The notes: generated from the letters alone by a model not told the origin. Counted from the stretch's first letter, positions 1,073 through 62,803 are shown. The stretch is DNA of 62,803 nucleotides from an uncultured Gammaproteobacteria bacterium (GCA_964486685.1 CAZAOE010000004.1:1-62803); one strand, 5' to 3'. Program-made: numbers and translations.

Positions 1073-2176
1073 ATGAAAATATCCTTAAGGGCTTTATTTA
1101 AATTTGACTATTTGCTGCTTGGCGCAGTTTTTTTATTACTGGTGATCGGTTTAATAAGTATATATAGTGTTGGTCTAAGCGATATTGAATCTAAAATGAT
1201 ATTTTTTGACAAACAATTATTGTTTGCTATAACCGGCATAATTTTATTATTTGTTTTTTCATTTATAGATTATCGGTTTTTAAAATCTTATTATAAAATT
1301 TTTCTGATTGTCTCTTTTCTGTTATTAATATCTGTTTTAATATTTGGTGCGTTTATTAGGGGCACTAGTTCTTGGTTTTCCGTTCTTGGATTTCAATTTC
1401 AACCAGTAGAATTTGCCAAAATAGGATTAATAATTTTTTTAGCGGCCTATCTTTCTAATAAGGCCAAAGAGTTTTATAATTGGAAGCCCATTTTAATTTC
1501 TGCCTTAGTAAGTTTTGCTATGATAGCTTTAGTGATAATCCAGCCCGATTTGGGTTCAGCTATAATTCTTTTTGTTATTTGGTTTATTATGTTGCTTTTT
1601 ACAAACATTAATAAGAAAAAGATTATTATCATCTTTATTATTTTGGCTATATTAATATCTGCTGGCTGGTTTGTGTTTTTAGAGGGCTATCAAAAAGATA
1701 GAATTATAACATTTTTAAATCCCGAAAAAGATCCTTTGGGGGTTGGCTATAATCTTTCTCAATCCATTATAGCTGTTGGATCTGGTGGTCTTGCTGGTCG
1801 TGGTTTTGGTCTGGGCTCTCAAAGCCAATTAAATTTTTTACCTGAACAAAGAACCGATTTTGTATTTGCCGTTATTTCTGAAGAGTTTGGGTTTTTAGGT
1901 TCATTTTTTATTATTCTAATAATTATTGTATTTTTATTAAAAATATTAAATATCATCAGAAAATCTAATGATAATTTTGCTGTTTTTTTAGCTCTGGGTT
2001 TTTTAATTATGTTTTTTACTCAATCTCTAATGAATATAGCTATGAATGTTGGTCTAGCCCCAGTAATCGGACTGCCCCTACCCTTTATTTCTTATGGTGG
2101 CTCATCTCTATTAATGAGTTTGATTGCTGTGGGAATTTTGGAAAGCATTGTCATTCATCGCGTAGAATACGGATAG
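1073..2176 (+). CDS. SEDS-family cell-wall polymerase (FtsW/RodA/SpoVE)
   Basis: 367 aa, polytopic membrane profile. C-terminal GLPLPFISYGGSSLL and SQSQLNFLPEQRTDFVFA motifs are typical of FtsW/RodA. Confidence 0.9.
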   Translation: MKISLRALFKFDYLLLGAVFLLLVIGLISIYSVGLSDIESKMIFFDKQLLFAITGIILLFVFSFIDYRFLKSYYKIFLIVSFLLLISVLIFGAFIRGTSSWFSVLGFQFQPVEFAKIGLIIFLAAYLSNKAKEFYNWKPILISALVSFAMIALVIIQPDLGSAIILFVIWFIMLLFTNINKKKIIIIFIILAILISAGWFVFLEGYQKDRIITFLNPEKDPLGVGYNLSQSIIAVGSGGLAGRGFGLGSQSQLNFLPEQRTDFVFAVISEEFGFLGSFFIILIIIVFLLKILNIIRKSNDNFAVFLALGFLIMFFTQSLMNIAMNVGLAPVIGLPLPFISYGGSSLLMSLIAVGILESIVIHRVEYG

Positions 2177-2314
2177 AGGACAATTTCAAATTATCAATTT
2201 CCAATTTTCAATTAAATTTTAAATGATTTAATTTTCAGACAAACTACCCCCGAGTTAAACTTAGTGATTTATATCATACCGACTAACATCGGTTTTTATA
2301 TTTTATTATAATAT

Positions 2315-2501
2315 CTGCGAACATTACAAAAATTTAGTCAGAATTTGAATGAGACATCCGTTAAAAACTTTGACTTGTTTGAGGAGTGAAATGACAATGG
2401 AACGACGAGTTTCAAAGTTTTAGGATGACGAATGATTAAATTACCTAAATTTTTGTACAGTTCGCGACTTTTTAGTTCTACCTTTTTCTAGAAAAAGGTA
2501 G
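2315..2501. repeat. composite long-hairpin element, copy A (23-nt inverted arms plus a 24-nt perfect palindrome)
   Basis: Arms are CTGCGAACATTACAAAAATTTAG and CTAAATTTTTGTACAGTTCGCGA. The palindrome CTACCTTTTTCTAGAAAAAGGTAG lies at 2478-2501. The reverse complement aligns with 61487-61691. Confidence 0.85.
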
Positions 2502-2554
2502 AAAAAAAGATATTCACAAAAGTAGTCTTTTTAACTAATAACCTGCGACTCGCA

Positions 2555-2619
2555 ACTTGCAACTTTTACCCCGTAAAATGTTATCGCTTCGCGATAATTT
2601 CACAGGGTAAACTTGAAAC
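2555..2619. repeat. CCCGTWA hairpin with TATCGCTTCGCGATA centre (family copy 1 of 3)
   Basis: ACTTGCAACTTTTACCCCGTAAAATGTTATCGCTTCGCGATAATTTCACAGGGTAAACTTGAAAC. Homologous copies at 12048-12120 and 41731-41790. Confidence 0.85.
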
Positions 2620-2731
2620 TTTTAACTTTAAACTATATAATTAAATTAGCTAAATTAAGGGGAATTCACCCCATCACCTAAAATTTTTAGGTGAGGGGTT
2701 TAGTATTTTTAGTTAATATTTAAATTAATTT

Positions 2732-4024
2732 ATGAAAAAAATATTTATATCTGACATCGATAAACATTTAGACCAAGAAGTAAAAATAGAAGGCTGGGTC
2801 CATAATTTCCGGTCATCTGGCTCTTTATATTTTCTTCAAATTAGAGACGGTTCTGGATTTATTCAAGCTATTATTTCTAAAAATACGGTTGGTGAAAAAA
2901 CCTGGAAAGAGTGTCTTAAAATTACTCAAGAAACTTCCTTGGAATTGGAGGGCAAAATTTCTAAACACCCCAAAAAAGAAGAATATGAACTTCAAGTCAG
3001 TGATTTAAAATTGTTTCAAATTGCCGAAGAATATCCAATTTCTAATAAAGAGCATGGTGAGGCCTTTTTACTAGATAATCGACACCTTTGGTTAAGGTCA
3101 AAAAAACAATGGGCAATTCAAAAAATAAGAGACCAAATTATTCAGGCGACTTATGATTTTTTCCATCAAGAACACTTTATTAAAATTGACTCTCCTATTT
3201 TAACTCCCAATGCCTGTGAAGGAACAACAACTCTTTTTGGAATGGATTATTTTGATTTGGGAAAGGCCTATTTATCTCAATCTGGACAATTATATTTAGA
3301 GGCAGCAATTATGGCTCATGCTCGGGTCTTTGATTTTGGTCCTACTTTTCGTGCTGAAAAATCTAAAACTCGCCGACATTTAACTGAATTTTGGATGATG
3401 GATGCGGAAATGGCTTTTTGCGATCATGAATGTAATATGCAAATTCAAGAAAACTTAATTTCATATATTATTCAAGATGTTTTGAAAAATTGTCCTAAGG
3501 AGTTAGAAATGCTAGAACGAGACATTTCCAAACTAAAAAAAATTAAAACTCCCTTTATTAAAATGACTTATCAACAGGTCTTAAAAAAATTACAAGACCT
3601 GGGCTCAAAAATAAAATCTGGAGAAGATTTAGGCGCAGAAGATGAAACTTTAATTACTAAAAATAGCGACCTGCCTGTATTTATTGAAAAATGGCCCAAG
3701 GAAATTAAGGCCTTTTATATGAAACGCGACCCAGAAAATAAAAACTTGGTCCTTGGTTCTGATTTAATTGCTCCGGAAGGACACGGAGAAATAATTGGCG
3801 GTTCACAAAGAGAAGATGATTATGAAATTTTAAAAAAGAGAATTTTAGAAGAAAAATTAAATATAAAAGATTTTCAATGGTATTTGGATTTAAGAAAATA
3901 TGGCAGCGTGCCTCATTCTGGATTTGGTTATGGCTTGGAAAGATTAACTGGCTGGATTTGTGGTGTCCATCATATCCGCGAAACAATTCCATTCCCAAGA
4001 ATGATAAATAGAATTACTCCGTAA
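2732..4024 (+). CDS. asnS: asparaginyl-tRNA synthetase
   Basis: 430 aa with an N-terminal OB fold and a class II core. The motif FRAEKSKTRRHLTEFWMMDAEMAF is the AsnRS signature. C-terminal GFGYGLERL. Confidence 0.9.
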   Translation: MKKIFISDIDKHLDQEVKIEGWVHNFRSSGSLYFLQIRDGSGFIQAIISKNTVGEKTWKECLKITQETSLELEGKISKHPKKEEYELQVSDLKLFQIAEEYPISNKEHGEAFLLDNRHLWLRSKKQWAIQKIRDQIIQATYDFFHQEHFIKIDSPILTPNACEGTTTLFGMDYFDLGKAYLSQSGQLYLEAAIMAHARVFDFGPTFRAEKSKTRRHLTEFWMMDAEMAFCDHECNMQIQENLISYIIQDVLKNCPKELEMLERDISKLKKIKTPFIKMTYQQVLKKLQDLGSKIKSGEDLGAEDETLITKNSDLPVFIEKWPKEIKAFYMKRDPENKNLVLGSDLIAPEGHGEIIGGSQREDDYEILKKRILEEKLNIKDFQWYLDLRKYGSVPHSGFGYGLERLTGWICGVHHIRETIPFPRMINRITP

Positions 4025-4208: not shown

Positions 4209-5570
4209 ATGCGAATAACTATCTTCGGTACTGGATATGTAGGGCTAGTCCAGGGGGCCTGCATGGCCGACCTCGGACATGATGTGCTTTGTATTGATAT
4301 TAATCAAGAAAAAATAAAAAAGTTGAATAAAGGAGAAGTGCCTTTTTATGAACCCGGCCTTTCAGATTTAATCCAAAGAAATGCTAAGCAGGGGAGACTA
4401 CAATTTAGCCTAGATGCTAAGAGGGGTATTGAATTTTCCACGGCAATATTTATTGCAGTCGGCACTCCACAATCTCTCAATGGTCAAGCTGATTTATCAG
4501 CTGTTTGGACTGTGGCTAAAGAAATTGGTAAAAACATGAAGGAATATAAGGTAATTGTTAATAAAAGTACTGTCCCCCCTTTGACTGCTCAAAAAGTTAG
4601 AGAAATAATTGAAAAAAACCTAAAAGAAAATATAAAATTTAGTGTAGTTTCTAATCCAGAATTTTTACGCGAGGGCTCAGCTGTAAAAGATTTCTTGATT
4701 CCTGATCGAATAGTAATTGGCATTGAACCAGGAGACGAAGATGCTAAAAAAATAATGTTAAAAATGTATGATGCCTTAGCCCGAACCGATAAACCCATCA
4801 TGTTCACTGACACCACCACTTCCGAAACAATTAAATATGCTGCCAATGCTATGTTAGCTTCTAAAATATCTTTCATGAACGAACTCTCCCATTATGTTGA
4901 AAAAACCGGTGCTAATATCAAAGAAATAGCCAGAGGTATTGGTTTAGATAACCGAATTGGTCCACGGTTTTTACAGGCCGGCTGTGGTTATGGCGGAGCT
5001 TGCTTTCCTAAAGATATTCAGGCCTTAATTTATGAAATGAAACAAAATAATCTTAGTAGTGAAATGTTAGAAGCCATTGAAAGTGTTAATGAAAAACAAA
5101 AAAAATCAATTATTAAAAAAGTAAATCACCTTCTTCCTAATTTAAAAAATAAGACTATTGGCATTTGGGGCCTTTCTTTCAAGCCCAATACTGATGATAT
5201 TCGCCAAGCTCCTTCTAAAACCATTATTAATGATTTATTAAAACAAGGAGCCAAAATTAAGACCTTTGACCCCGAAGCTATGGAAAATTCTCAAAAAGAG
5301 ATAATCAAAGATCCCGATCAAAAATCTCGAGTAGAGTCGAGAGACCAAAATGGGAGGAAAACTATAGAATATTGTAAAAATCCTTATGAAGTTACCAAAA
5401 AAATTGATTTATTAATCTTAGTAACTGAATGGAATGTTTTTAAAGAAATTGATATGCAGAAAGTTAAAGAATCTATGAAAACAGCTAATTTAATTGACTG
5501 TCGTAATGTTTATAATCCAAATGAAATGAGAGAATTGGGGTTTAATTATATTTCAATCGGTCGCCCTTAA
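4209..5570 (+). CDS. ugd: UDP-glucose 6-dehydrogenase
   Basis: 453 aa with the Rossmann motif IFGTGYVGL and the catalytic-Cys motif GYGGACFPKDI. UDPG/GDP-mannose dehydrogenase domain order. Confidence 0.9.
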   Translation: MRITIFGTGYVGLVQGACMADLGHDVLCIDINQEKIKKLNKGEVPFYEPGLSDLIQRNAKQGRLQFSLDAKRGIEFSTAIFIAVGTPQSLNGQADLSAVWTVAKEIGKNMKEYKVIVNKSTVPPLTAQKVREIIEKNLKENIKFSVVSNPEFLREGSAVKDFLIPDRIVIGIEPGDEDAKKIMLKMYDALARTDKPIMFTDTTTSETIKYAANAMLASKISFMNELSHYVEKTGANIKEIARGIGLDNRIGPRFLQAGCGYGGACFPKDIQALIYEMKQNNLSSEMLEAIESVNEKQKKSIIKKVNHLLPNLKNKTIGIWGLSFKPNTDDIRQAPSKTIINDLLKQGAKIKTFDPEAMENSQKEIIKDPDQKSRVESRDQNGRKTIEYCKNPYEVTKKIDLLILVTEWNVFKEIDMQKVKESMKTANLIDCRNVYNPNEMRELGFNYISIGRP

Positions 5571-5759
5571 ATAATTGATAATAGTTTAATAGGATAATAG
5601 GATAATAGAAAAACATTACCTAATAATCTATAAATAAAATAATAATTATAAAATAAATATATTTATCCCGTTAGATATCAGGATTTTAAAAGCTCTAATG
5701 GGATTAGCATAATTTATTCTAATTAAAACAAACAAAACTAATAAATAATATCTAATGGG

Positions 5760-7169
5760 ATGAAAACTTACATTAAAGAAACTATTACTAAAAAAATAAA
5801 TGAAGAAGTAGAATTAAAGGGTTGGGTTCATGTTTTTCGTCGCATGGGGAAAATTGCTTTTATTGACCTCCGAGATTCTACTGGCATAATTCAAGTAGTT
5901 TGCATACCAGCGGAAATGACTCCAGAATCAGCTATATTACTAGACAATATTCGCCCGGAATTTGTAATCAGTTTAAAAGGAATAATTCAAGCTCGAGGAG
6001 AAAAACAAATTCGCGCCGATCAATTAACTGATCAGATTGAAATCTTAGCTAAAGACATCAAAATACTCTCTGAATCCGAAACGCCTCCTTTTGAAATTGA
6101 AAATGAGGACAGACAAGCCAACGAAGAATTACGACTAAAATATCGTTATTTAGATCTCCGACACGAACGAATGGCTAAAAATATCAAAGCGCGCCATCAA
6201 GTAATAAATTTTTTAAGAAACAATTTAAACGACAAGGGCTTCACTGAAGTTCAAACTCCAATTCTAACTAAATCAACCCCTGAAGGAGCCCGCGACTATA
6301 TTGTTCCTTCTCGTTTGCATAAAGGTAAATTTTTTGCTTTACCACAAGCCCCACAACAATATAAACAATTATTAATGATTGCTGGATTAGAAAAATATTT
6401 CCAAATTGCTCCTTGTTTTCGAGATGAAGATGCTCGTTCTGACCGCAGTCCCGGAGAATTTTATCAATTAGATCTGGAAATATCCTTTTTAAATCAAGAA
6501 GAAATATTAAACTTAGTTGAAGATACAGTAACTAAAATGGTGGAAGAATTATTTCCCGAAAAAAAGATTACTACTAAACCATGGCCTCGAATTAATTATC
6601 AAGAAGCAATGGAAAAATATGGAACTGATAAACCAGATTTAAGAAAAGACAAAAAAGATCCAAATGAATTAGCTTTTGCCTGGATTATAAACTTTCCTTT
6701 ATTTACTAAGGATGCCGAGGAAGAATTTATTGGCACCAAAGGCAAATGGGCCCCATCTCATAATATGTTTACTGCTCCCCAAGAAAAAGATATTGAATTA
6801 TTAGATAAAGATCCGAGAAAAGTAAAATCATACCAGCACGATTTAGTATTAAATGGTTTTGAGCTTGGTGGAGGAGCGATCAGAATTCACGATATGAAAA
6901 TTCAAGAAAAAATCTGGGATTTAATTGGCTTTACTGAAAAACAAAAAAAAGAATTTACTCATTATTATGAGGCCTTTAAATATGGCGTTCCCCCTCATGG
7001 TGGAATTGCTTTGGGTATTGAAAGATTAATGATGATTTTAATGAATGAAAAAAACCTGAAAGAAGTCACTGCTTTTCCTTTAACTTCTGATGGCCAAGAT
7101 CCTTTAATGGATGCTCCTCAAGAAGTTAGTAAAGAGCAATTAGGGGAGTTGGGTATAGAAATAAAATAA
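5760..7169 (+). CDS. aspS: aspartyl-tRNA synthetase, bacterial-type core without the GAD insertion
   Basis: 469 aa with FRDEDARSDRSPGEFYQLDLEISF (motif 2), GGGAIRIH and PPHGGIALGIERL. DKPDLR is followed almost directly by the FPLF segment. Confidence 0.9.
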   Translation: MKTYIKETITKKINEEVELKGWVHVFRRMGKIAFIDLRDSTGIIQVVCIPAEMTPESAILLDNIRPEFVISLKGIIQARGEKQIRADQLTDQIEILAKDIKILSESETPPFEIENEDRQANEELRLKYRYLDLRHERMAKNIKARHQVINFLRNNLNDKGFTEVQTPILTKSTPEGARDYIVPSRLHKGKFFALPQAPQQYKQLLMIAGLEKYFQIAPCFRDEDARSDRSPGEFYQLDLEISFLNQEEILNLVEDTVTKMVEELFPEKKITTKPWPRINYQEAMEKYGTDKPDLRKDKKDPNELAFAWIINFPLFTKDAEEEFIGTKGKWAPSHNMFTAPQEKDIELLDKDPRKVKSYQHDLVLNGFELGGGAIRIHDMKIQEKIWDLIGFTEKQKKEFTHYYEAFKYGVPPHGGIALGIERLMMILMNEKNLKEVTAFPLTSDGQDPLMDAPQEVSKEQLGELGIEIK

Positions 7170-12047: not shown

Positions 12048-12120
12048 ACTTGCAACTTTTAAACTTTTATCCTGTTGAATTATCGCTTTGCGATACTATT
12101 CAACAGGATGAACTTGTAAC
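12048..12120. repeat. CCCGTWA-type hairpin with TATCGCTTTGCGATA centre (family copy 2 of 3)
   Basis: ACTTGCAACTTTTAAACTTTTATCCTGTTGAATTATCGCTTTGCGATACTATTCAACAGGATGAACTTGTAAC, ending 5 nt before the scpA ATG. Confidence 0.85.
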
Positions 12121-16773: not shown

Positions 16774-16849
16774 TTCTAATTAATAGTTTAATTGCATAAT
16801 AGGGTAATAGTTTAATTGTTTATATATTATAAATAAAAGAAAAGCGATT

Positions 16850-17220: not shown

Positions 17221-17336
17221 AATCTACTTGTCCTCCGACCTGTCCCCCGAAGCGGATGCGCAGGGGGAAGCTCGACTTGTCCTCCGAAGCTTGAAGAGCG
17301 GAGGGGGAAGAGCGGAGGGGGAAGAGCGGAGGTAGA
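17221..17336. repeat. GC-rich word-array hairpin (TTGTCCTCCGA x2 ... GAAGAGCGGAGG x3)
   Basis: Read directly. The ends ATCTAC and GTAGAT are complementary. Shares GTCCTCCGAAGCTT with 62451-62464. Confidence 0.8.
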
Positions 17337-17410
17337 TTAACCAATTATCCAATTAACAATTAATTTTTCAATTAATCTATTAATCAATTATCCAATTAAC
17401 AATTAATATT

Positions 17411-17780: not shown

Positions 17781-17926
17781 TCCTTCGCTACTTCCTTCAC
17801 TACTTCCTTCGCTAAAGCTCCGGAAGTCAAGAAAGCTCCGGAAGTCAAGAAAACTACGGATGGCACGCCATAAATAACTTAACCAATTATACAATTAACC
17901 TATTAATCAATTAAGCAATTAACAAT

Positions 17927-18082
17927 ATGTCTCAAGATAATTTAGTCAAATTAGAATGTTCTGAGTGCCACAGAATTACTTATCGAACATTTAAAAATAA
18001 AAAAACTCTAAAGAACAAATTAGAGCTTAAAAAATTCTGTAAATGGTGCAAAAAGCATACCTTACATAAAGAAACTAAATAG
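17927..18082 (+). CDS. rpmG: 50S ribosomal protein L33
   Basis: 51 aa, not in the ORF track because it is short: [51 protein letters not shown], with the CxxC...CxxC zinc ribbon of L33. Confidence 0.9.
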
Positions 18083-20701: not shown

Positions 20702-20919
20702 GGTATCCTCCTGTATTTTTTCTTTTTTCTTTTATACTTAAACTTACCATACCCATTTTAACTTGTAAATAGAAAATATCCACTCCCATTATTTGCTTTA
20801 TTAGAGCTATAATATTATACTTAAGGGGTTAATAATTTAAAAATTATGAATCCCGTTAGATAATCAAAGAGTTTAATCTAATAGGGAGTAGAAATTAAAA
20901 TTATAAACATTATTATAAA

Positions 20920-21009
20920 CCCCCACACCTAATTTAGGTATAAGGAGTAATTAATCAAAAATCTCATATTTATTAAAATTAGGTGAGGGGTAAATAATTA
21001 TCTAACGGG
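20920..21009 (+). repeat. CCCCACACCTAATTT...AAATTAGGTGAGGGG hairpin plus AATTATCTAACGGG junction (element E, copy 1)
   Basis: The reverse complement aligns with 60540-60629. Both copies lie in the 5' leader of, and in the same orientation as, the downstream gene. Confidence 0.85.
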
Positions 21010-21948
21010 ATGAATAAAAAAGTACTAATTACCGGTAGTATTGCCTATGACCGAATTATGAATTTTCCCGGATATTTTAAGGACAATATTTTACCAGAGC
21101 AAATTCATAATCTTAATGTTTCTTTTTTTGTAAATGAATTTCGAGAGTCCTATGGTGGCACAGCTGGCAATATTGCTTATAATTTAAACTTAATAAATGC
21201 TAACTTTACAACTTGGGCCAATGTCGGAGATGATTTTGAAAACTATAAACAATGGCTCTTAAAAAATGATATTGATATTTCTAAAATCAAAATTTTTAAA
21301 GAGCAAAAAACTGCTTCGGCTTATATTATTACCGATCAAGCTGATAATCAAATTGCTGGATTTTTTCCTGGTGCTATGATGGAATCCATTAGCTTAAAAC
21401 CAATCTCTTTAAAAAATATTGATTTGGCTATTATTGCCCCCCAAAATCCAATAGATATGGTTGAGCTACCTTTATTATTTAAAGAAAATGAAATACCTTA
21501 TATATTTGACCCCGGACAACAAGTCACAACCCTATCTGGGGAACAATTAAAACAATCCATCAGCAAAAGTAATGTCCTCATAGGTAATGATTATGAGATT
21601 AAATTAATTCAAGAAAAAACTAAATGGACTTTAAAGGATTTGCAAAAACAAACCGAAATACTAATAATCACCTTAGGAGAAAGGGGTTCTAAAATTTATA
21701 AAAAAAATAAAGAATATAATATAAATCCTGCTGAAGCAAAAAATACAGCAGATCCCACTGGAGCTGGAGATGCTTATCGAGCTGGATTAATTATGGGATT
21801 AATAAAAAATTGGTCTTTTCAAAAAATTGGTCAATTTGCAGGATTAATGGCTGTTTATACTGTAGAAAAATATGGCACCCAAACCCATAGTTTTAATTGG
21901 AAAGAGTTGGAAAAAAGATATCGACAAAATTTTCATGAAAAGCTATAA
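21010..21948 (+). CDS. adoK: adenosine kinase (PfkB family, mycobacterial AdoK-like)
   Basis: 312 aa. ITGSIAYDRIMNFPGYFKDNILPEQIHNLNVSFFV...GGTAGNIAYNL...FFPGAM...DPTGAGDAYRAG parallels Mycobacterium AdoK as I recall it. Next to ahcY. Confidence 0.75.
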   Translation: MNKKVLITGSIAYDRIMNFPGYFKDNILPEQIHNLNVSFFVNEFRESYGGTAGNIAYNLNLINANFTTWANVGDDFENYKQWLLKNDIDISKIKIFKEQKTASAYIITDQADNQIAGFFPGAMMESISLKPISLKNIDLAIIAPQNPIDMVELPLLFKENEIPYIFDPGQQVTTLSGEQLKQSISKSNVLIGNDYEIKLIQEKTKWTLKDLQKQTEILIITLGERGSKIYKKNKEYNINPAEAKNTADPTGAGDAYRAGLIMGLIKNWSFQKIGQFAGLMAVYTVEKYGTQTHSFNWKELEKRYRQNFHEKL

Positions 21949-23422: not shown

Positions 23423-23605
23423 CTAATTGGATAATAGTATAATTGAATAATAGATTAATAAATCATAACAATTATCCTATTAACCAATTAATCTATTAAC
23501 CTATTAACTGGCTCTTTATGGGCTTGTTTTTTTTCTCATAAATGTTAAAAATATGTTAAGATATATATAAGGAAAAAAATTGAAGAATATTTTTAAAATA
23601 AGAAT

Positions 23606-25861
23606 ATGGAAAATAACTTTCTAAAACAAAAGTTTGATGGTCTTCATATTAGTCCAGAAGTAGAAAGTGCTACTAAGAGAAAAGAAGTAAGAGAAGGAAG
23701 TAAAAAAATTACTAAACCAACAGAAAAGATAGAAGCACATCTAGATAGATTAGATGAAATTTTTAGTACAGAAGATAATAATAAAAGAAAATTTAGAATA
23801 AACTTCTTAAAGGATAAACTACATGATAAGTTTATTATTAAGCCAGAAGATATTCCTGAAAGCTATTATGACCAACAAAGAAGAATAGTTAGGCAAGAAG
23901 GACATGGAGATGTAGAAATTACTCCAAATATGAGAAAAGATGCTGAAACAACTATTGTAGCTGATCAAAAAGCAAGTTTAGATACTTGGATTGATTATTT
24001 GGGATCAAAAGATGCTACTTATCCAAACTATCTTAAATATTTTGCTTTTAGAGGAATAATCAAACTAGGAAAGTATAATAAAGAAAAACAAAAATTTGCT
24101 AATCGAACCAAAGAAACAGTAGCTCCTTTTATAGAACTAAATCGAGAAGCCTTAGCTTATGTCTTGGATGCTTTAGAAAAAGAACATCAAGGACAAGAAC
24201 AAGGCGAACTATCAGAAGAATTTAAAAAATATCTGAAGAATGCTAACTTTGGTAAAATGTATGCTCAAGCAATTAAAGATATCTACAAACAAGGAGGAAT
24301 GGAGAAACTAGATATCCATGACGGAAAATGGATTAAATATGAACAAGGAAATAATTATCAAAAATTACATAAATCTCTCCAAGGAAAAGCAACTGGTTGG
24401 TGTACGGCTGGTGAAAGCACCGCTAATACTCAATTAAAGAATGGTGATTTCTATGTTTATTATACTAAAAATAATGATGGACAATATACTGAACCACGGA
24501 TAGCTATTCGGATGAATGGTAAAAATAAGATTGGTGAAATTAGAGGAGCGGCTCCTAATCAAAATCTAGAATCAGAAGCTGAAGAAATCTTAGATGAAAA
24601 ACTAACTGAATTTCCAGATTCAGAAGCATACAAACAGAAAAGTCATGATATGAAGTTATTAACTCAGATTGAAGAAAAACAAAATAATAATCAAGAACTA
24701 AGCAAAGAAGATCTTAAATTCCTTTATGAAGTAAATAATCCGATTAAAGGCTTTGGTTATCAGAAAGATCCTCGAATCAAGGAAATACAAGACCAAAGAA
24801 ATGTTAAAAAAGATCTTTCTTTTGTTTTTGAATGTTCCCAAGAACAAATTAGCGCAACAAAAGAAGAGGCCTTAAAAGGAGATATTAAATTTCATTATGG
24901 CAATCTTGATCTTTATGGTCTGCAATCAGCTGAAGGACTTACGCTACCCGAAAGTATAGGTGGTGGTCTTTATCTTAGCGGACTTAAATCAGCTGAGGGA
25001 TTAAAACTACCAGAAAATATCGGCGGTGATATTATTCTTAATGGTTTACAATCAGCTAAAGGACTTAAACTACCTGAGAACATGGGTGGTAATCTTGATC
25101 TTGATGGTCTAACCTCAGCCGAAGGATTAAAACTACCAGAAAGTATAAGCGGTTATCTTGATCTTAGTGGTCTGCAATCAGCTGAAGGACTTAAACTACC
25201 TGAGAACATGGGTGGTAATCTTTATCTTGGTGGTCTGCAATCAGCTGAGGGATTAAAACTACCTGAGAACATGGGTGGTAATCTTGATCTTGATGGTCTA
25301 ACCTCAGCCGAAGGATTAAAACTACCAGAAAGTATAAGCGGTTATCTTGATCTTAACGGACTTAAATCGGTAGAAGGACTTAAACTACCTGAAAGTATAA
25401 GTGGTAGTCTTTGGCTTAGTGGTCTGCAATCAGCTGAAGGACTTAAGCTGCCTGAAAGTATAAGTGGTGATCTTTATCTTAGTGGTCTGCAATCAGCTGA
25501 AGGACTTACGCTACCCGAAAGTATAGGTGGTGGTCTTTATCTTAGCGGACTTAAATCAGCTGAGGGATTAAAACTACCAGAAAATATCGGCGGTGATATT
25601 ATTCTTAATGGTTTACAATCAGCTGAGGGACTTGAACTACCCGAGAACATAGGTGGTGGTCTTTATCTTAATGGTCTTCGATCAGCAGAAGGGCTTAAGC
25701 TGCCTGAGAGTATAAATGGTGATCTTGATCTTAGTGGTCTGCAATCAGCTGAAGGACTTAAGCTACCTGAAAATATAAGTGGTAATCTTGATCTTCGTGG
25801 TCTGCAATCAGCTGAAAAAGAAAAATTAAGAGAAAAATATCCTAATTTAAATATTATATAA
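23606..25861 (+). CDS. large repeat protein: unrecognised N-terminal domain (~430 aa) plus 14.5 LRR-like 21-aa repeats
   Basis: 751 aa. The repeat consensus is GLQSAEGLKLPE[SN]I[SG]G.L.L. No signal peptide is evident. Confidence 0.8.
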   Translation: MENNFLKQKFDGLHISPEVESATKRKEVREGSKKITKPTEKIEAHLDRLDEIFSTEDNNKRKFRINFLKDKLHDKFIIKPEDIPESYYDQQRRIVRQEGHGDVEITPNMRKDAETTIVADQKASLDTWIDYLGSKDATYPNYLKYFAFRGIIKLGKYNKEKQKFANRTKETVAPFIELNREALAYVLDALEKEHQGQEQGELSEEFKKYLKNANFGKMYAQAIKDIYKQGGMEKLDIHDGKWIKYEQGNNYQKLHKSLQGKATGWCTAGESTANTQLKNGDFYVYYTKNNDGQYTEPRIAIRMNGKNKIGEIRGAAPNQNLESEAEEILDEKLTEFPDSEAYKQKSHDMKLLTQIEEKQNNNQELSKEDLKFLYEVNNPIKGFGYQKDPRIKEIQDQRNVKKDLSFVFECSQEQISATKEEALKGDIKFHYGNLDLYGLQSAEGLTLPESIGGGLYLSGLKSAEGLKLPENIGGDIILNGLQSAKGLKLPENMGGNLDLDGLTSAEGLKLPESISGYLDLSGLQSAEGLKLPENMGGNLYLGGLQSAEGLKLPENMGGNLDLDGLTSAEGLKLPESISGYLDLNGLKSVEGLKLPESISGSLWLSGLQSAEGLKLPESISGDLYLSGLQSAEGLTLPESIGGGLYLSGLKSAEGLKLPENIGGDIILNGLQSAEGLELPENIGGGLYLNGLRSAEGLKLPESINGDLDLSGLQSAEGLKLPENISGNLDLRGLQSAEKEKLREKYPNLNII
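24905..25815 (+). repeat. 63-nt in-frame tandem repeat array inside the CDS (about 14.5 units)
   Basis: Block 24917-25057 is identical to 25484-25624 (141 nt). Block 25072-25165 is identical to 25261-25354 (94 nt). Confidence 0.9.
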
Positions 25862-25931
25862 GTTATTAAAACAAATAATTATTAAAACAAACTCTTTATG
25901 GGCTTGTTTTTATATGTTAAAATAAAGACAT

Positions 25932-27696: not shown

Positions 27697-27889
27697 CCTA
27701 TTAATCAATTAACCCCTCACCTTTTTTGGAAACAAATTGTTATGATAATTATCATTTTAAAATAAAAATAATCCTCTTACTTTTTTAAATAAAAAAGGTG
27801 AGGGGTTAACCTATTAATTTTATGAAGCCCGTAAGATAGATAATCCATTTTATGGGAATAAAATATTACCATAATAAACTATAAAAAAT

Positions 27890-29344
27890 ATGACTAGTAA
27901 AATAAAACAAAATATATCTAACGGGCTGAAATTACGTTTTGCTCCCTCACCAACTGGATATTTACATATAGGCGGATTAAGAACTGCTCTATATAATTAT
28001 TTATTTGCTCAAAAAAATAATGGAAAATTTGTATTAAGAATAGAAGATACAGACCAAAAAAGACACGTTCAAGGTGCTGACAAACAAATTATTGAAACTT
28101 TAAAAATCTTTGGAATAAAATTTGATGAAGGTCCTTTTTATCAATCTCAAAGATTAGCAATATACAAAAAATATGTCCAGAAATTAATAGCAAACAATAA
28201 GGCCTATTATTGCTTTTGTTCTAAAGAACGCTTAGATGAAATGAGAAAAAAACAAATTGCCGAAAAAAAAATTCCAAAATATGACCGTCATTGTTTAAAT
28301 TTATCTAAAGAAACAATAGAAAAAAAACTAAAAAATAAAGAACCTTATGTAATTAGATTAAAACTTCCAGATAATCAAGATATTGTTTTTCAAGACGAGG
28401 TTTATGGTCAAGTAAAAATCAATACAAATGACATGGATGACCAGGTTTTATTAAAATCTGACGGTTATCCAACATATCATTTAGCTGTTGTAGTAGATGA
28501 TCATGAAATGGGTATTACGCATATAATTAGGGGCGAGGAGTGGCTTCCATCAACACCAAAGCATATTTTGCTTTATCAAATGTTTAATTGGGAAATCCCA
28601 AAATTTATTCATTTACCATTATTATTAAATCCTGATAAATCTAAATTATCCAAAAGACAAGGAGATGTAACAGCAGAGGACTTTCTTAAAAAAGGATATC
28701 TCCCAGAAGCAATTTTAAACTATATAGCTTTCTTAGGTTGGAATCCAAAAACAACTAAAGAAATTTATTCAGTAGAGGAGTTAATTAAAGATTTTGATCT
28801 TGCTAAAATAAACAAAGCTGGTGCCATTTTTAATATTGAAAAGCTTAATTGGTTTAATGCCGAATATGTCCGCAATATAGTCAAAGTAAAAGGCAAAAGA
28901 TATCAAAAATTATTAGAAGAAGTAAAAAAATATTTTCCTAAAGATTTAGCTAAAAATAAATTAGAAAACATATTTATAGTTTTGTCAAGTAGATTAAATT
29001 ACTTATCCGAATTAAAAGAATCCAGTAAATTTATTTTCAAATTACCTAATTATGATTCTAAAATGCTGATATTTAAAAAAAGCGACACCAAAACAACTCT
29101 AAAGGGTTTAGAAATAGTTTATAATGAATTAGAAAAAACAAAGGAATGGGCTCTAAAAAATTTAGATAATAACTTGAAAAACATAGTAAATAATAATGAA
29201 TTAAAAGCCGGAGATGTATTTTGGCCTGTCAGAGTAGCTGTTTCTGGATTAGAAAAAAGCCCCAGTCCAGCCGAGATATTGTGGGTTTTGGGTAAAAAAG
29301 AAAGTTTAAAAAGAATTACAAAAGCTATTAATAGATTAAAATAA
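27890..29344 (+). CDS. gltX: glutamyl-tRNA synthetase
   Basis: RFAPSPTGYLHIGGLRTALYNY (HIGH) and KLSKRQG (KMSKS). The start is uncertain between ATG 27890 and in-frame CTG 27926 (see findings). Confidence 0.9.
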   Translation: MTSKIKQNISNGLKLRFAPSPTGYLHIGGLRTALYNYLFAQKNNGKFVLRIEDTDQKRHVQGADKQIIETLKIFGIKFDEGPFYQSQRLAIYKKYVQKLIANNKAYYCFCSKERLDEMRKKQIAEKKIPKYDRHCLNLSKETIEKKLKNKEPYVIRLKLPDNQDIVFQDEVYGQVKINTNDMDDQVLLKSDGYPTYHLAVVVDDHEMGITHIIRGEEWLPSTPKHILLYQMFNWEIPKFIHLPLLLNPDKSKLSKRQGDVTAEDFLKKGYLPEAILNYIAFLGWNPKTTKEIYSVEELIKDFDLAKINKAGAIFNIEKLNWFNAEYVRNIVKVKGKRYQKLLEEVKKYFPKDLAKNKLENIFIVLSSRLNYLSELKESSKFIFKLPNYDSKMLIFKKSDTKTTLKGLEIVYNELEKTKEWALKNLDNNLKNIVNNNELKAGDVFWPVRVAVSGLEKSPSPAEILWVLGKKESLKRITKAINRLK

Positions 29345-38782: not shown

Positions 38783-39340
38783 TTATAAACCCAATTCATT
38801 AGAAATACTTTGCATGGCTATTAAGCCAATCTTTAAAAAACGTTCTAAATCCATCTCAAAATCTGCACAAGCCACTATCCCTTCTCTGCGCGCTCCTTTG
38901 GCAAAATTACCCTCTCTAAATCTTTTTTGTAATGACGCTAATTTTAAATCCGCTAATTTTTTACTTGGCAAAACTAAAGTGGAAGCAACAATTAATCCAG
39001 TCAATGGGTCAACAGCATAAATACATTTTTCTATTAAAGTGTTTCGGGTTTTGCCAGTCATTTCATTATGTGCTCTAATAGCATTAGTTATAATTTTATC
39101 AACTCCAATTTTTTCCAACTCCTCTGCTATCTTAGCACCTTGCCTAGAAGAATTCTGCAAACATTCCTCGTCTTCCATATCAGCATCATGTAAAAGTCCT
39201 GCTAATCCCCAAGCCTCTTCATCCTCTCCAAAATGCTTAGCTAAGGCCCGCATAATGGCCTCGGTAGCCAACATATGCTTAATTGAATTCTGATTTTTTA
39301 CTCTGGACTTAATCAAATCCAAAGCTTCATCTCTAATCAT
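38783..39340 (-). CDS. HD-domain phosphohydrolase
   Basis: 185 aa with H...HD (LLHDADME) metal-binding motifs. Confidence 0.7.
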   Translation of the reverse strand: MIRDEALDLIKSRVKNQNSIKHMLATEAIMRALAKHFGEDEEAWGLAGLLHDADMEDEECLQNSSRQGAKIAEELEKIGVDKIITNAIRAHNEMTGKTRNTLIEKCIYAVDPLTGLIVASTLVLPSKKLADLKLASLQKRFREGNFAKGARREGIVACADFEMDLERFLKIGLIAMQSISNELGL

Positions 39341-39375
39341 ACTATTAACCTATTATTCAATTAACCTATTAACAA

Positions 39376-40857
39376 TTATTCTTTTGGTTTCATTAATGGA
39401 AAAATCTGACATTCTCGACCCGGTTTATCCATTAAAAAACTAAAAACCCTTTCACTCATTCCATAGCCACAAGTTGGTGGCATACCATATTCTAAGGCCT
39501 CCACAAATTCTTTATCATACATTTGAGCCTCATCATCTCCTTCGTCTCTTAATTTTTCTTGTTTTTGAAATCTTTGAGCTTGGTCAATGGGGTCATTTAA
39601 TTCACTATAGCCATTTCCTAATTCTGAACCAGCAATAATCGGCTGAAATCTTTGGGTAAGTTCTGGATTATCCTCTTTTCTTTTGGCCAAAGGAGAAACT
39701 ACTTCTGGAACGCCAATTAAAAATCCTGGACCCTTGATTTGCTTGCGACAGTATTTCCACAAATTATCTATCGCTCGAGTTAAATTAAAACCTTTTTGAT
39801 CATATTTAATTTTTAATTCTTTTAATTTAGCCTCTATTTCTTTTTGATTAGTTTTTAAAATATCTATCCCGGTCATTTTTTGCACAGTTTTTTGATAATC
39901 ATAAATTTCCCATTTTTTATTTAAATCTATATTAAAACCCTTAATTTTAAATTTGGCTGTCCCAAAAGTTTCCTGAGCCACATATTTATACATCTCTTCT
40001 ACTAATTGCATACCTTTTTTGTAATCAGCATAGGCCCAATAAAATTCCATTTGTTCATAGTCCTGTAAATGTTCGGCGTCCATGCCTTCGTTTCTAAATT
40101 GCCTACCAATTTCAAAAACTTTTTCAAAACCAGCCACCATTAACCTTTTATGCCATAATTCACCGGTCGAAATACGCAAATAAACATCTAAATCTAAAGC
40201 ATTATGATGAGTTATAAATGGCCGAGCATCAGCTCCTCCGGTTTTTATTTCTAAAGCCGGAGTTTGTACCTCTGTAAATCCTTTATCTAATAAAAAATTA
40301 CGAACAGCATTCCAAAACTTTCCTTTTTTAATAATCATTTCTTTGACTTCTGGATTGGCAAGAATATCTAAATATCTTTTTCTTAATCGCTCTTCTTCGT
40401 CTTTTAAACCATGATATTTTTCTGGTAAAGGTCGTAAGGTTTTAGTTAATAATTTCCAATCCTTAACCATTAAACTTTGTTCGCCTTTATGGGTAATAAA
40501 AAGAGTGCCATTAGCTTGGATAAAATCCCCAATATCAATTAATTTTGTAAAGTTTTTGTATTTTTCATCGCCAACTTCTTTTTTAGAAAAAGCTAATTGT
40601 ATTATTCCAGAATCATCTTGGATTTGAGCAAAACTAAGATTTCCATGCGAACGAATACTTCTTAAACGACCACATAAAAAAATATCCTCTTTCTTTTTTT
40701 CCAACTTTTTAAAATTAGCCAAAACTTCCTCAATCATGTGGGTTCTTTTAGAAACAGCTGGATAAGGATCAATACTTTTTTCCCGAATCTTTTTTAAACG
40801 CTCAACGCGAATCTTATATTCGTCGCTAGGGTTAATAATTGTTTGTTTATCTGCCAT
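39376..40857 (-). CDS. lysS: lysyl-tRNA synthetase (class II)
   Basis: OB fold plus class II core (FRNEGMDAEHLQDYEQMEFYWAY, GYGMSERV). ATG 40857 (MADKQ...) is preferred to the track's TTG 40893. Confidence 0.9.
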   Translation of the reverse strand: MADKQTIINPSDEYKIRVERLKKIREKSIDPYPAVSKRTHMIEEVLANFKKLEKKKEDIFLCGRLRSIRSHGNLSFAQIQDDSGIIQLAFSKKEVGDEKYKNFTKLIDIGDFIQANGTLFITHKGEQSLMVKDWKLLTKTLRPLPEKYHGLKDEEERLRKRYLDILANPEVKEMIIKKGKFWNAVRNFLLDKGFTEVQTPALEIKTGGADARPFITHHNALDLDVYLRISTGELWHKRLMVAGFEKVFEIGRQFRNEGMDAEHLQDYEQMEFYWAYADYKKGMQLVEEMYKYVAQETFGTAKFKIKGFNIDLNKKWEIYDYQKTVQKMTGIDILKTNQKEIEAKLKELKIKYDQKGFNLTRAIDNLWKYCRKQIKGPGFLIGVPEVVSPLAKRKEDNPELTQRFQPIIAGSELGNGYSELNDPIDQAQRFQKQEKLRDEGDDEAQMYDKEFVEALEYGMPPTCGYGMSERVFSFLMDKPGRECQIFPLMKPKE

Positions 40858-41730: not shown

Positions 41731-41790
41731 CTGGTAACTTTTATCCCGTTAAATTATCGCTTCGCGATATTATTTAACGGGATAAACCTG
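41731..41790. repeat. CCCGTWA hairpin with TATCGCTTCGCGATA centre (family copy 3 of 3)
   Basis: AACTTTTATCCCGTTAAATTATCGCTTCGCGATATTATTTAACGGGATAAACCTG, about 95 nt upstream of the priA-like gene. Confidence 0.85.
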
Positions 41791-41882
41791 TCTGACCACC
41801 GGTAATCCATGGGACAAAGGAAGGTAACCAGTAACTAATTCTTCCCCTTTATACTTTCTCCTTTTTCCTTTATACTTAAAAT

Positions 41883-44500: not shown

Positions 44501-45469
44501 ATGAATAGTATAAAACCCACCAACATTGTTTTCTTCGGTTCTGATCAAAACTCAGCTAAATTACTAGCGGACTTAATTCAAGCTAATTATAATATTGAAT
44601 TAGTAATTACTAAATCAATTAAAAAAACTGGCCGGCAACAAAAACAAAACCCAGTTCAAAAAATGGCTGAACAGGCTGGGCTTAAAATTTTAACTAAAAA
44701 CAAATTAAACTCCGAAGAAGATATTAATCTTTTTAAAAACATTTCTGCTCAATTAGGCATTCTTTTGGCTTATGGAGTGATTATTCCGGAAAAAATTTTA
44801 AATTTATTTTCTTTAGGAATTATAAATATCCACCCCTCTCTACTTCCTAAATACCGCGGGGCCTCTCCTATACAAAGTGTTTTATTAAATGGAGAAAAAC
44901 AAAGTGGCGTAAGTATTATGCTTTTAGAAAAAGAAATGGATGCTGGACCAATTATTGCTCAAGAAAAAATTAAAATCGACCCTAAAGACAATCATGAAAC
45001 TTTAAACCAAAAATTATTTTATTTGGGTAATAAATTATTGCTTGATAATTTAGAAAAATATATTAATAAAAAGATTACTGCTCACCCTCAAGACAATAAT
45101 CAAGCAACTTATTCTAAAATAATTAAAAAAGAAAACGGATTAATTGATTGGAATAATTCTGCTGAAAAAATAAACAATCAAATCCGAGCTTTTTATACTT
45201 GGCCAGGGGCCTATACTTATTTTAATGGTAAACCCCAACACTTAAATAAGTGTAGGGGTAAATTATTCAAAATAATTAAAGCTGATATTAGCGATCAAAA
45301 TACTGACCATCAGCTTGGTAAAATTTTCTTAGAAAATCAACAAATTGCTATCCAAACTCAGCAAGGACTCCTCTATCCTTCCATTGTTCAAATTGAAGGA
45401 AAACAAAAAATGGATATTACTCCATTTAGCAACGGCCAACAAAATTTTATTGGAACTATTTTAAAATAA
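44501..45469 (+). CDS. fmt: methionyl-tRNA formyltransferase
   Basis: 322 aa with NIHPSLLPKYRGASPIQ and a C-terminal tRNA-binding domain. Directly downstream of def. Confidence 0.9.
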   Translation: MNSIKPTNIVFFGSDQNSAKLLADLIQANYNIELVITKSIKKTGRQQKQNPVQKMAEQAGLKILTKNKLNSEEDINLFKNISAQLGILLAYGVIIPEKILNLFSLGIINIHPSLLPKYRGASPIQSVLLNGEKQSGVSIMLLEKEMDAGPIIAQEKIKIDPKDNHETLNQKLFYLGNKLLLDNLEKYINKKITAHPQDNNQATYSKIIKKENGLIDWNNSAEKINNQIRAFYTWPGAYTYFNGKPQHLNKCRGKLFKIIKADISDQNTDHQLGKIFLENQQIAIQTQQGLLYPSIVQIEGKQKMDITPFSNGQQNFIGTILK

Positions 45470-45544
45470 ATTACCGTCAACTAAGGGGTAATGGTTTCTG
45501 TTGTGCCGACCAATCCGGCTTTTGTTTTTTTAATAAGCCTAAAC

Positions 45545-45635: not shown

Positions 45636-45863
45636 AAAAAAATATAAAATAAATAAATAACTATTGTAACTATAAATAATTTATCCCATTATACTAATCA
45701 TATCAAATAATATGACGAGGTGATACATGCACCACTAAGCAAAATAATTTTTTGTTAACAAAAAATGGAGATTAATCCATTTAGCAACGGCCAACAAAAT
45801 TTTATTGGAAGTATATTAGAATAATAAGCCATAAAATAACTAATAATAACTGATAGCTAGCGG

Positions 45864-58602: not shown

Positions 58603-58650
58603 GGCTTTAAATGGTTAAATAATTTAGTTATAATCGCTTTTCTCTAATTT

Positions 58651-58765
58651 TTAACCCCTCTTTGTCTCCCCTTGGTAAGGGGAGAATAATTAGGACCCCT
58701 CCTTACCCCGTACAAAAGCTTCGCTTTATACGGGGCGAGGCCAAAGAGGGGTTAGGGGAGGTTAA
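58651..58765. repeat. nested GC-rich hairpin cluster (TCTCCCCTTGGTAAGGGGAGA plus the CCCCGTA...TACGGGG core)
   Basis: Outer arms TTAACCCCTCTTTG and CAAAGAGGGGTTA. The inner 35-nt core is identical to 45571-45605. Confidence 0.85.
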
Positions 58766-59109: not shown

Positions 59110-59276
59110 AATCGCTTTTCTATTTAAATTTATTAATATAACCCCTCTTAATCTCCCCTTGGTAAGGGGAGAATGGTTGGTAGACAACCCATATTTGTCT
59201 CCCCTTGCTTGCCCTGAGCGAAGTCCCGTTTAGTGGGACGACGTCGAGGGAGTAAGGGGAGAATAATTAAAATTTA

Positions 59277-60470: not shown

Positions 60471-60539
60471 CCCATTAGCCCCGTTTAGAGATAAATCCAT
60501 CACCAAATTTTAAATTTGGTGATGGGATAAATCTCTAAC

Positions 60540-60629
60540 GGGGTTAGATAATTACTTACCCCCCACCTAATTTTAATAGCTATGAGGTTTTTGATTAATT
60601 ACTCCTGATGCCTAAATTAGGTGTAGGGG
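60540..60629 (-). repeat. element E, copy 2 (inverted relative to 20920-21009)
   Basis: CCCCCCACCTAATTTTAATAGCTATGAGGTTTTTGATTAATTACTCCTGATGCCTAAATTAGGTGTAGGGG. It supplies the last 7 codons and the stop of ORF 60612..61097. Confidence 0.85.
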
Positions 60630-61097
60630 TAAATATTTACTTTGCTTAATAATTTGCAGGGCCTGCTCTGGATCATTGATAGTTACAAAAAATTTCTTAT
60701 TCTTCTTGGTCTCAATCATTAAACCATCTCCAGTTCTAGCAATATAACCCATAATCCTATGTCTATTAAATCTAACACCATAGCCAAAAAAATTTCCTTT
60801 ACTAGTATCTATAATTATAGATTTAAGATCATTTTTAGCTATTTTGCTTTTAAAAAAACCATAACCAAACTCCAAACCCTCACTAGTAATTTTAAATTTA
60901 AGTTCATAAAAACTTCTAAAAATAAATATATCTACTAAAAAAATAACGCCTAATATAATTCTGGTAATCCAGGGTAAAGGTGGCAATCCCATTCCTGGCG
61001 GACTGATTATTAACAACAATAAGACCAAAGAAGAAAACAAATAAATCGCTGTTAATAAAAAATAGGACTTTTGTTTTTGTTCATGGATGATGTACAT
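60612..61097 (-). CDS. hypothetical membrane protein (two TM helices plus a small soluble, possibly bacterial-PH-like domain)
   Basis: 161 aa. No confident family assignment. Confidence 0.45.
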   Translation of the reverse strand: MYIIHEQKQKSYFLLTAIYLFSSLVLLLLIISPPGMGLPPLPWITRIILGVIFLVDIFIFRSFYELKFKITSEGLEFGYGFFKSKIAKNDLKSIIIDTSKGNFFGYGVRFNRHRIMGYIARTGDGLMIETKKNKKFFVTINDPEQALQIIKQSKYLPLHLI

Positions 61098-61486
61098 AGG
61101 GGTTAGGAATTAAGGGATAGGTTGTAGGAAATTAGGGGGTAGGTTTTAGGGAATTGGGGGGTAGGGATTAGGAGGTAGGTTGTAGGGAATTAGAAGGTAG
61201 GGATTAGGAGATTAGAAAATTGGAGTCGGGTCTAATTTTTACCTTTTACCTTTCCCCTTTTGCCTTTCTACTTACTTAATTTTATCATATTGAGCGTGGA
61301 TTGTCATTTGGGGTGAATGGATTGGTAATGGATAATAGTTTTTTATCTAATAAGATAAGTACTATTTGTTGAAAAATGAATAAATACAAATTCTAAATTT
61401 AGCTTAACTTATTTTAATAAAGTATTGTTTCGTTATATAGTAAAATATAATTATTTTAATTTTGTCTGAAGATATTTTTTCTTTTT

Positions 61487-61691: not shown

Positions 61692-61870
61692 TTAAAATAC
61701 AAATACAAAACTATTGTAATAATTATATTTTATTGTTTTAAGCGTTTACAGTGTTTGATGGAGAGCCAAGGGGAGTATATTATAACTTTTTTAACCCCTC
61801 CTATCCTCCCCTTGCAAAGGGGAAAAAATTAAGGTAAATAAATCCCCACACTTCAAGAAGTGTGGGGATA

Positions 61871-62540: not shown

Positions 62541-62803
62541 TTATTTTTAATTAATTATGTAAATATGCTTTTACCTATCGCCTTTTTTAAAAAGGTGATG
62601 GGTTTATTTTAGCATATTCATTAAATTTTTCAAGTGGAAAACCCCTCTATATCTCCCCTTGGTAAGGGGAGAATGAATCCCTCCGGCCTTTGCCCTTAAC
62701 TCCCTTATCCCCTCACCCCCATCCCCTCTCCACCCCTTTTGTCTCTCAACAAGCTCGAGACATTTCCCCCTATTCAGGGGGAATAGGGAGAGGGGTTAGG
62801 GGT

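Follow-up and report, generated by a model that had tools for sequence, protein, structure and literature searches.

An inverted repeat flush against the aspS start codon as a probable copy of a widespread miniature mobile element

Small repeats of several kinds have been described in bacterial genomes, and these form the background to the subject of this report, an inverted repeat that ends on the start codon of aspS in 62,803 nucleotides of DNA from an uncultured Gammaproteobacteria bacterium (GCA_964486685.1 CAZAOE010000004.1:1-62803; the whole stretch is referred to as the window). The Correia elements of Neisseria, also termed NEMIS, are short and non-coding, carry 26-bp terminal inverted repeats, are flanked by a TA target duplication and occur in many copies. 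They are co-transcribed with their neighbours, forming long RNA hairpins, and their presence varies from strain to strain. The RPE of Rickettsia and the MIRU of mycobacteria are palindromic or repeat units that are tolerated in or between open reading frames (ORFs), with the reading frame and the start and stop signals preserved; RPE lie in-frame within coding regions, and MIRU are direct repeats without terminal inverted repeats. REP and REPIN sequences, which are mobilized by RAYT transposases, are hairpins of about 100 nt in which two short repeats face each other in inverted orientation, and intergenic DNA contains many of them. The intervening sequences (IVSs) of 23S rRNA and the short rRNA inserts of Candidate Phyla Radiation (CPR) bacteria are extended stem-loops that replace helix tips, are patchily distributed and are thought to be horizontally mobile (PMC11270868); the IVSs are excised by RNase III. 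A 2024 survey of CPR rRNA found many unclassified inserts of less than 200 bp at IVS sites, with no motif reported (PMC11270868).

The window is bacterial, has a GC content of about 30%, lacks a Shine-Dalgarno sequence at most of its genes and has Candidatus Komeilibacteria (Patescibacteria) as its nearest named relatives. The aspS element is probably a copy of a family resembling miniature inverted-repeat transposable elements (MITEs), that is, of miniature, non-coding mobile elements with inverted ends. It is like the Correia elements in its size, its repeat structure, its short target duplication, its multiplicity, its transcription with neighbouring genes into long hairpins and its varying presence between genomes. 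However, its inverted repeats are of 11 nt and its duplication is of 4 bp, TNNA; moreover, unlike the Correia elements, it has a rebuilt start codon as its preferred surviving site and is found in genomes of very different GC content. It shares with RPE and MIRU the tolerance described above, whereas it has terminal inverted repeats and stands at position -1 of an ORF. It resembles REP and REPIN hairpins in length and abundance, but it has no GTAG-type head, no RAYT gene was seen, its copies have target duplications and, instead of being species-specific, it is shared across distant genomes. Like IVSs, some copies extend rRNA helices, although the same arms are found at protein-gene starts and in tRNA genes, and the copies in the window all lie outside rRNA. 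The family is apparently undescribed and very widely distributed, its motif was not found in the literature, and the kind of element to which it would belong is itself known. The copy at aspS is laid out as follows.

5666-5760, plus strand: copy A (aspS), a 93-nt core at 5667-5759 with a terminal T-A pair
5666-5676 (TCCCGTTAGAT) and 5750-5760 (ATCTAATGGGA), plus strand: 5' and 3' inverted repeats of copy A
5694-5702, plus strand: TCTAATGGG, internal second partner of copy A, forming a local 5' hairpin with 5667-5675
5760-7169, plus strand: aspS, a class II AspRS-type ORF of 469 aa, its start codon regenerated at the end of the element

A model given the DNA alone (the sequence-only reading) had proposed an arm with two competing partners, the second ending exactly at the ATG, and the window sequence and RNA folds bear this out. 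The arm ATCCCGTTAGAT (5665-5676) can pair with TCTAATGGGAT (5694-5704) or with ATATCTAATGGG (5748-5759). The local hairpin folds at -12.8 kcal/mol (z -2.9). The long-range stem has 17 bp and takes in AUGAA; it is the minimum-free-energy fold of 5655-5775, at -22.5 kcal/mol (z -3.55, none of 200 shuffles as good). ATG 5760 lies directly 3' of ATATCTAATGGG, its A being also the final A of the 3' inverted repeat, and the protein that it opens begins with MKTYIKET in all relatives. The flanks of copy A are inverted, TTTAT/ATGAA, with no direct repeat. A single 9-mer of the arm is not enriched (22 matches with at most one mismatch, against 17.8 expected). The arm pair CCCGTWAGAT-N60-90-ATCTAAYGGG occurs twice in the window and never in 100 shuffles, and a third pair, with a 138-nt gap, is found at adoK.

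Close relatives of the window were reached through their GltX, AspRS and PGK homologues, at 84-89% protein identity; in these the start codons of aspS, adoK and gltX are unchanged and carry no insert. The aspS site is empty in L241 and L242, where AspRS is 88-89% identical and the same ATGAAAACTTAC start is preceded by ordinary DNA. The adoK site is empty in five relatives (L083, L089, L086, L090 and L091), in two of which (L083 and L089) a promoter-like stretch upstream of adoK aligns as far as the ATG, and the gltX site is empty in L083, L089, L090 and L091. At gltX, L090 reads aatataatattATGAATTATAAA and its sister L086 reads aatatgataatATGAAA[CCCGTTAGAT...ATCTAATGGA]TTGAGTTATAAA, so that ATGAAT in the one corresponds to ATGAAA[insert]TTGAGT in the other. 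Shorter hairpins that stand before scpA and an AsnRS-like gene in the window are missing from L241 and L242. Overall, family members number one or two in about 130 kb of relatives and seven in the 62.8-kb window, and 80 aspS loci of greater distance, taken from reference genomes, all lack the motif. The sequence-only reading had taken the arms for a conserved 5' leader, and this did not survive comparison with either the nearest relatives or the distant aspS loci. Copies are present at the identical gltX site in four separate clades, beside empty sisters; either this site was hit repeatedly, or a single old insertion was precisely lost several times.

A scan of metagenomes for CCCGTWAGAT-N56-116-ATCTAAYGGG returned at least 120 contigs of 29-65% GC; among the matches listed, a typical copy is of 88-104 nt and many contigs have two to four. 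Family-wide, the elements are non-coding and measure about 35-160 nt. About 145 copies were used to describe their anatomy. The base outside CCCG pairs with the base outside CGGG, making the terminal inverted repeat 11 nt long (YCCCGTTAGAT...ATCTAACGGGR); this outermost pair is complementary in 134/145 copies, as C-G in 112 and T-A in 22. Interiors are variable, A/T-rich and unrelated between subfamilies, and code for nothing beyond mini-ORFs. Changes in one arm are frequently compensated in the other, at 31 positions (for example AAAT/ATTT, GAC/GTC, ACAT/ATGT and CCTG/CAGG), as the sequence-only reading had suggested looking for. Perfect 4-nt direct repeats flank 30/145 copies, where 0.6 would be expected, with the consensus TNNA; the commonest are TGAA (8), TTTA (5), TTGA (4), TAAA (3) and TTCA (3). 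Insertion duplicates 4 bp of the target, TNNA and most often TGAA. The family thus shows the small, non-coding character, terminal inverted repeats, multiple copies and presence or absence between related genomes by which MITEs are recognized, together with target duplications such as TGAA at the adoK copy, CTAA at a nested copy and TGTA at L243; copy A itself has no such duplication. In Rfam, only tRNA and rRNA families were matched, both in scans at gathering thresholds of the window and 12 loci and in E-value scans of L103 and of window positions 5560-5790.

Contact with the start codon without any spacer is a property of the whole family. Among 286 ends of 143 copies from other metagenomes, the start codon of a long ORF stands exactly at offset 0 in 22, and each other offset from -45 to +45 has between none and five, with secondary peaks at -36/-33 and at +6 to +9. 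The genes concerned are unrelated, and include those for GAPDH, UvrC, RmlA, phosphoglycerate mutase, HrcA, RbfA, a YchF-like GTPase, a primase and response regulators, as well as DnaG-like genes. Of 23 start-adjacent copies, 15 have ATGNN plus a pyrimidine on the left and RTGNN on the right. The left codon in such flanks is always ATG; the right codon is ATG where the element has T...A ends and GTG where it has C...G ends, and the letters of the second codon on the right are copied from the host. At L121 the element lies in an ATGA stop/start overlap; the upstream stop survives in the left duplicate and the downstream start in the right one. Where the codon after the 3' arm has decayed (to CTG, TTA, TTG, GTA or GCG), the element itself always supplies an in-frame ATG, 30-42 nt upstream. 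Copies that retain ATG or GTG at this codon have an in-frame stop a short way upstream.

These features can be drawn together in a single mechanism. Insertion into TGAA, TGTA or TGGA after the A of a start codon yields ATGNN-Y{element}R-TGNN. The host ATG remains to the left, where it opens a short ORF that leads nowhere (MNPVR and a stop, at adoK and gltX), while the terminal A or G of the element, with the duplicated TG, rebuilds ATG or GTG flush against the 3' repeat; hence there is neither a spacer nor a Shine-Dalgarno sequence. Many genes of these compact, AT-rich genomes begin with ATGAA, and start codons and ATGA stop/start overlaps are probably among the few sites at which both neighbours would be spared, so that copies would persist there. 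Should the rebuilt codon decay, the in-frame ATG inside the element would take over and the 3' repeat would be translated, as ISNG at gltX. The contact with ATG is a by-product of the mode of insertion.

Seven family members were counted in the window. Besides copy A, these and the repeats nested within them are the following.

20846-21015, plus strand: copy B (adoK/PfkB), ATGAAT, core 20852-21009 and ATGAAT, with ATG 21010 next to the core
20920-20990, plus strand: second palindromic repeat CCCCCACACCTAATTT...AAATTAGGTGAGGGG, nested in copy B
27822-27931, plus strand: copy C (gltX), ATGAAG, core 27828-27925 and CTGAAA
60471-60629, minus strand: copy D (pgk), ending ATCTAA/TGGG directly before ATG 60470-60468
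60479-60543, minus strand: short hairpin CCCCGTTAGAGAT...ATCTCTAAACGGGG, nested in the 3' inverted repeat of copy D
2561-2616, plus strand: short hairpin relative with arms CCCCGTAAAATG/TTTCACAGGGT, upstream of the AsnRS-like gene
12062-12117, plus strand: short hairpin relative with the fully compensated arms CCTGTTGAAT/ATTCAACAGG; its end lies 7 nt before ATG 12125
41736-41791, plus strand: short hairpin relative with arms CCCGTTAAAT/ATTTAACGGG, upstream of priA by about 90 nt

The sequence-only reading had also seen the aspS layout recur at adoK, gltX and pgk, with an initiation codon after the arm in each case. The layout is indeed present at all three. Copy B is the cleanest example, ATGAAT|...|ATGAAT, with the target duplication TGAA at 20847-20850 and 21011-21014, and its left ATG now opens the mini-ORF MNPVR. 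In copy C, the codon after the 3' arm is CTG and not ATG; this CTG is the decayed former start codon of gltX, and an in-frame ATG is found at 27890, 36 nt upstream inside the insert. Copy C is predicted to be translated as an N-terminal extension of GltX (MTSKIKQNISNG), and in four homologues GltX N-termini ending in (I/T)SNG correspond to translated ATCTAACGGG. In copy D, which reads ...CTAATGGG and then the pgk ATG at 60470 on the minus strand, the 3' arm does abut the ATG, but the 5' arm that had been assigned to it belongs to the nested hairpin at 60479-60543. This hairpin folds at -41.1 kcal/mol (z -7) and is flanked by a 4-nt duplication, CTAA, at 60547-60544 and 60478-60475. Copy D represents what is left, at the 3' side, of an older and composite element whose 5' part is missing in the window. 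The full element is kept at pgk in the relative L243, with ATGTAT on both sides; there, two tandem inserts occupy the pgk start, ATGTAY is present three times and TGTA is duplicated twice.

Three shorter hairpin relatives in the window have the arms CCCGTTAAAT/ATTTAACGGG or variants of them, and the ATG at 12125 behind one of these is likely to be the scpA start. Another lies within window positions 2176-2732, a non-coding gap of about 550 nt that is unusually long for this genome, also contains a terminator-like hairpin and has no Rfam match. The palindromic repeat CCCCCACACCTAATTT...AAATTAGGTGAGGGG of copy B is also found upstream of pgk (60559-60629) and upstream of the gene at 2732. As a repeat in its own right, CCCCnCACCTAA...TTAGGTGnGGGG, it occurs at 2663-2700, 20920-20990, 27773-27815 and 60559-60629, past gene ends as well as nested in copies B and D, with a loop that is sometimes large and contains AAGGAG.

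The internal partner of the 5' arm is present in copies A, B and C (27847-27856 in the last, with G-U pairs on the plus strand) and at L088, L121 and L243, suggesting that it belongs to the consensus of the element in the lineage of the window. Across 28 start-adjacent copies, a local partner is found at the gene-distal arm only in 18 and the reverse in one; with stricter calling of orientation, the ratio is 13:3 in favour of the gene-distal side. This bias fits selection for an accessible start codon. The 5' repeat and its internal partner would fold first during transcription, sparing the 3' repeat and the start codon from the long stem, and only the gene-distal orientation would then survive at start codons, making the insertion tolerable. 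Alternatively, the bias may reflect a preference at the level of insertion linked to the asymmetric TGAA target, as all eight orientable TGAA/TTCA duplications read TGAA. On balance the internal partner appears to serve tolerance of the insertion, and regulation of the start codon stays putative.

Copies are also found in genes for stable RNAs. In a bacterial 23S rRNA gene (L118:1-2682, minus strand), there are three homologous inserts of 80-100 nt with CCCGTTAGAY/RTCTAACGGG ends, one of which takes the place of the helix 25 tip, where IVSs are classically found. Further copies lie inside tRNA anticodon loops. On at least seven contigs (L106, L117, L137, L138, L139, L149 and L156) a complete tRNA-Val lies between the arms, and this unit is set into the anticodon loop of a second tRNA; the arms here are CCCGTTAGAT/ATCTAACGGG, as at L106:745-1008 and L137:7020-7282. 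A related nested arrangement with tRNA-Leu occurs at L153, and L101 is also listed among the nested tRNA loci. The outer tRNA is otherwise intact, its anticodon stem covaries between genomes, and in 6/7 cases the outer loop letter N is the N of the inner anticodon NAC. A functional outer tRNA would require that the insert be taken out of the RNA; no known motif for such removal was found at the nested tRNA loci. It is unlikely, though far from negligible, that a single mobile hairpin combines self-tolerance, through rebuilt starts and a decoy arm, with occupation of 23S helix tips and functional interruption of tRNA anticodon loops. Interruption of this last type, if true, would point to a new bacterial RNA excision-and-joining activity recognizing the CCCGUUAGAU/AUCUAACGGG stem. 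As a separate observation, a 16S rRNA 3' end at L113:1-118 is without the CCUCC anti-Shine-Dalgarno sequence and has GGAAUAAUUCAAUU in place of the expected GGAUCACCUCCUU; start-adjacent copies of the element are also present at L113.

Several observations weigh against a mobile element of the MITE type. The fetched loci yielded no transposase and no autonomous element with these ends, which would show as duplication-flanked arm pairs separated by 0.4-4 kb, and the proteins encoded beside the copies in 80 clustered loci (L092-L171) include no recurrent family. A clean duplication is missing from about half of the copies, and 14/145, including copy A, have inverted 4-nt flanks, which extend the repeat to 15-16 nt with no visible duplication and are not predicted by cut-and-paste transposition with a 4-bp stagger. 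The same 10-mer is kept on contigs of 29-65% GC, unusually broad for one MITE family. At the single gltX site occupied in four clades the arms are better conserved than the flanking duplications, which hints at constraint after insertion, and the copies embedded in tRNAs, which look vertically conserved, would have to be removed from the RNA. One alternative is a dedicated cis-regulatory leader RNA, a switch or attenuator in which the 5' arm alternates between partners and gates initiation at aspS, adoK, gltX and pgk. Both pairings fold well, the arms covary, gltX and aspS have G-U pairs on the sense strand, 18/19 decidable start-adjacent copies have a gene-distal internal partner, and the gltX copies hold their arms while the interior diverges. 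A leader RNA would, however, have to be missing from the orthologous leaders of the closest relatives and from the 80 further aspS loci, lacks any conserved interior able to bind a ligand or factor, has no Rfam match and leaves the flanking duplications unaccounted for. Nor do its hosts form the set of aminoacyl-tRNA synthetase, glycolytic and nucleoside-salvage genes that had been envisaged, as they are functionally unrelated and extend to rRNA and tRNA. A covarying terminal stem and an internal partner constant in position and orientation are equally expected of a transposon end under selection for tolerance. The leader RNA is thus quite improbable; the structure described by the sequence-only reading is partly supported, and the kind of feature that it proposed is rejected.

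Slightly less improbable, though still poorly favoured, is an intron-like or intervening sequence, in which the terminal stem marks the insert for excision from RNA and DNA copies spread secondarily; RNase III would act without ligation in rRNA, and a putative cut-and-join activity would act in tRNA and mRNA. The three 23S copies, with that at the tip of helix 25, would suit this explanation, as would the short unclassified inserts common at the IVS sites of CPR rRNA (PMC11270868), the interrupted anticodon loops of otherwise intact, covarying tRNAs, and the fact that joining ATGAAG to CTGAAA at gltX would yield MKLKLRF. In protein genes, however, excision is unneeded, since a rebuilt start or an in-frame internal ATG is always there; copies with inverted flanks have no upstream ATG to which splicing could join, there are no bulge-helix-bulge, group I or group II features, and the 4-nt duplications indicate insertion at the DNA level. 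Programmed translational bypassing, in which ribosomes would initiate on the upstream ATG AAN, skip the insert and resume on the matching codon beyond it, is suggested by adoK, where the same hexamer, ATGAAT, borders the insert left and right and the left one is shortly followed by a stop. It deserves almost no credence, as aspS and many other copies have no upstream ATG, the gaps of 90-330 nt are far above known hops and the hexamers are accounted for by target duplication. A mobile element of the MITE type remains the explanation that we prefer.

Other known types of sequence were also considered and rejected. A split gene, intron or bypass at gltX (MK + LKLRF) is countered by the inverted-flank copies without an upstream ATG and by the in-frame internal ATG that is always present. 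An archaeal-type intron would have a bulge-helix-bulge motif, two 3-nt bulges with a 4-bp helix between them, at its exon-intron boundaries; the terminal stems here are continuous helices, no such motif is found at the tRNA copies and the hosts are bacterial. Folded integron attC sites begin, at the 5' end, with RYYYAAC and finish, at the 3' end, with GTTRRRY; the heptamers ATCTAAC and GTTAGAT are present in the element, in the opposite order on both strands, and no integrase or cassette array was seen. Sites of the dif/Xer type or other junction sites are not supported, there being no head-to-tail arm junctions, and the spacing is wrong for CRISPR-like arrays. On viral contigs, the 15-mer ATCTAACGGGGTGAA mostly matches solitary stop/Shine-Dalgarno/start junctions of phage genes; these matches are convergent or due to chance, with the exception of a few short hairpins. 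Promoter and terminator scans of three of the leaders were uninformative in such AT-rich DNA.

Further features of the window may be recorded. The aspS gene is one of two class II Asp/Asn-type tRNA synthetase genes, at 2732-4024 (430 aa) and 5760-7169 (469 aa), which are 1.7 kb apart with only a UDP-glucose dehydrogenase gene between them, a pairing conserved in L241 and L242. Intergenic tracts with an 8-nt period, of the AATTAACC or TAATAGGA type, are found at 5579-5616, 16781-16818, 17336-17410, 17869-17931, 23424-23508 and 39335-39383, and similar octamer tracts (ACTTGAAA / AAGTTACA) lie upstream of genes in L083, L089, L091 and L241. Within a 751-aa ORF at 23606-25861, a 63-nt (21-aa) unit is repeated in tandem about 13-17 times (24840-25895). 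The hairpin repeat AACCCCTC...CTCCCCTTGGTAAGGGGAG is present in four copies, at 58648-58694, 59135-59181, 61788-61834 and 62635-62681. Just upstream of a 161-aa hypothetical ORF (60612-61097) is a G-rich tract (C-rich on the minus strand) of degenerate 14/22-nt tandem repeats, GGGGGTAGG/TTAGGGAATT, at 61099-61213. Finally, an 83-nt segment at 45402-45484, which spans the end of the ORF at 44501-45469, is repeated with 86% identity 355 nt downstream, at 45757-45839.

For annotation, the identification of this family removes one false riboswitch candidate and explains odd gene starts in Patescibacteria-like genomes, among them N-terminal extensions ending in ISNG, leucine at the first methionine position and mini-ORFs before true starts. 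The nested tRNA copies provide a lead to a possible removal of inserts at the RNA level, and the short rRNA intervening sequences of candidate-phyla bacteria are linked to a mobile repeat that these genomes also carry at other sites. Insertion that rebuilds the start codon would let the element occupy position -1 of essential genes in tiny, gene-dense genomes.

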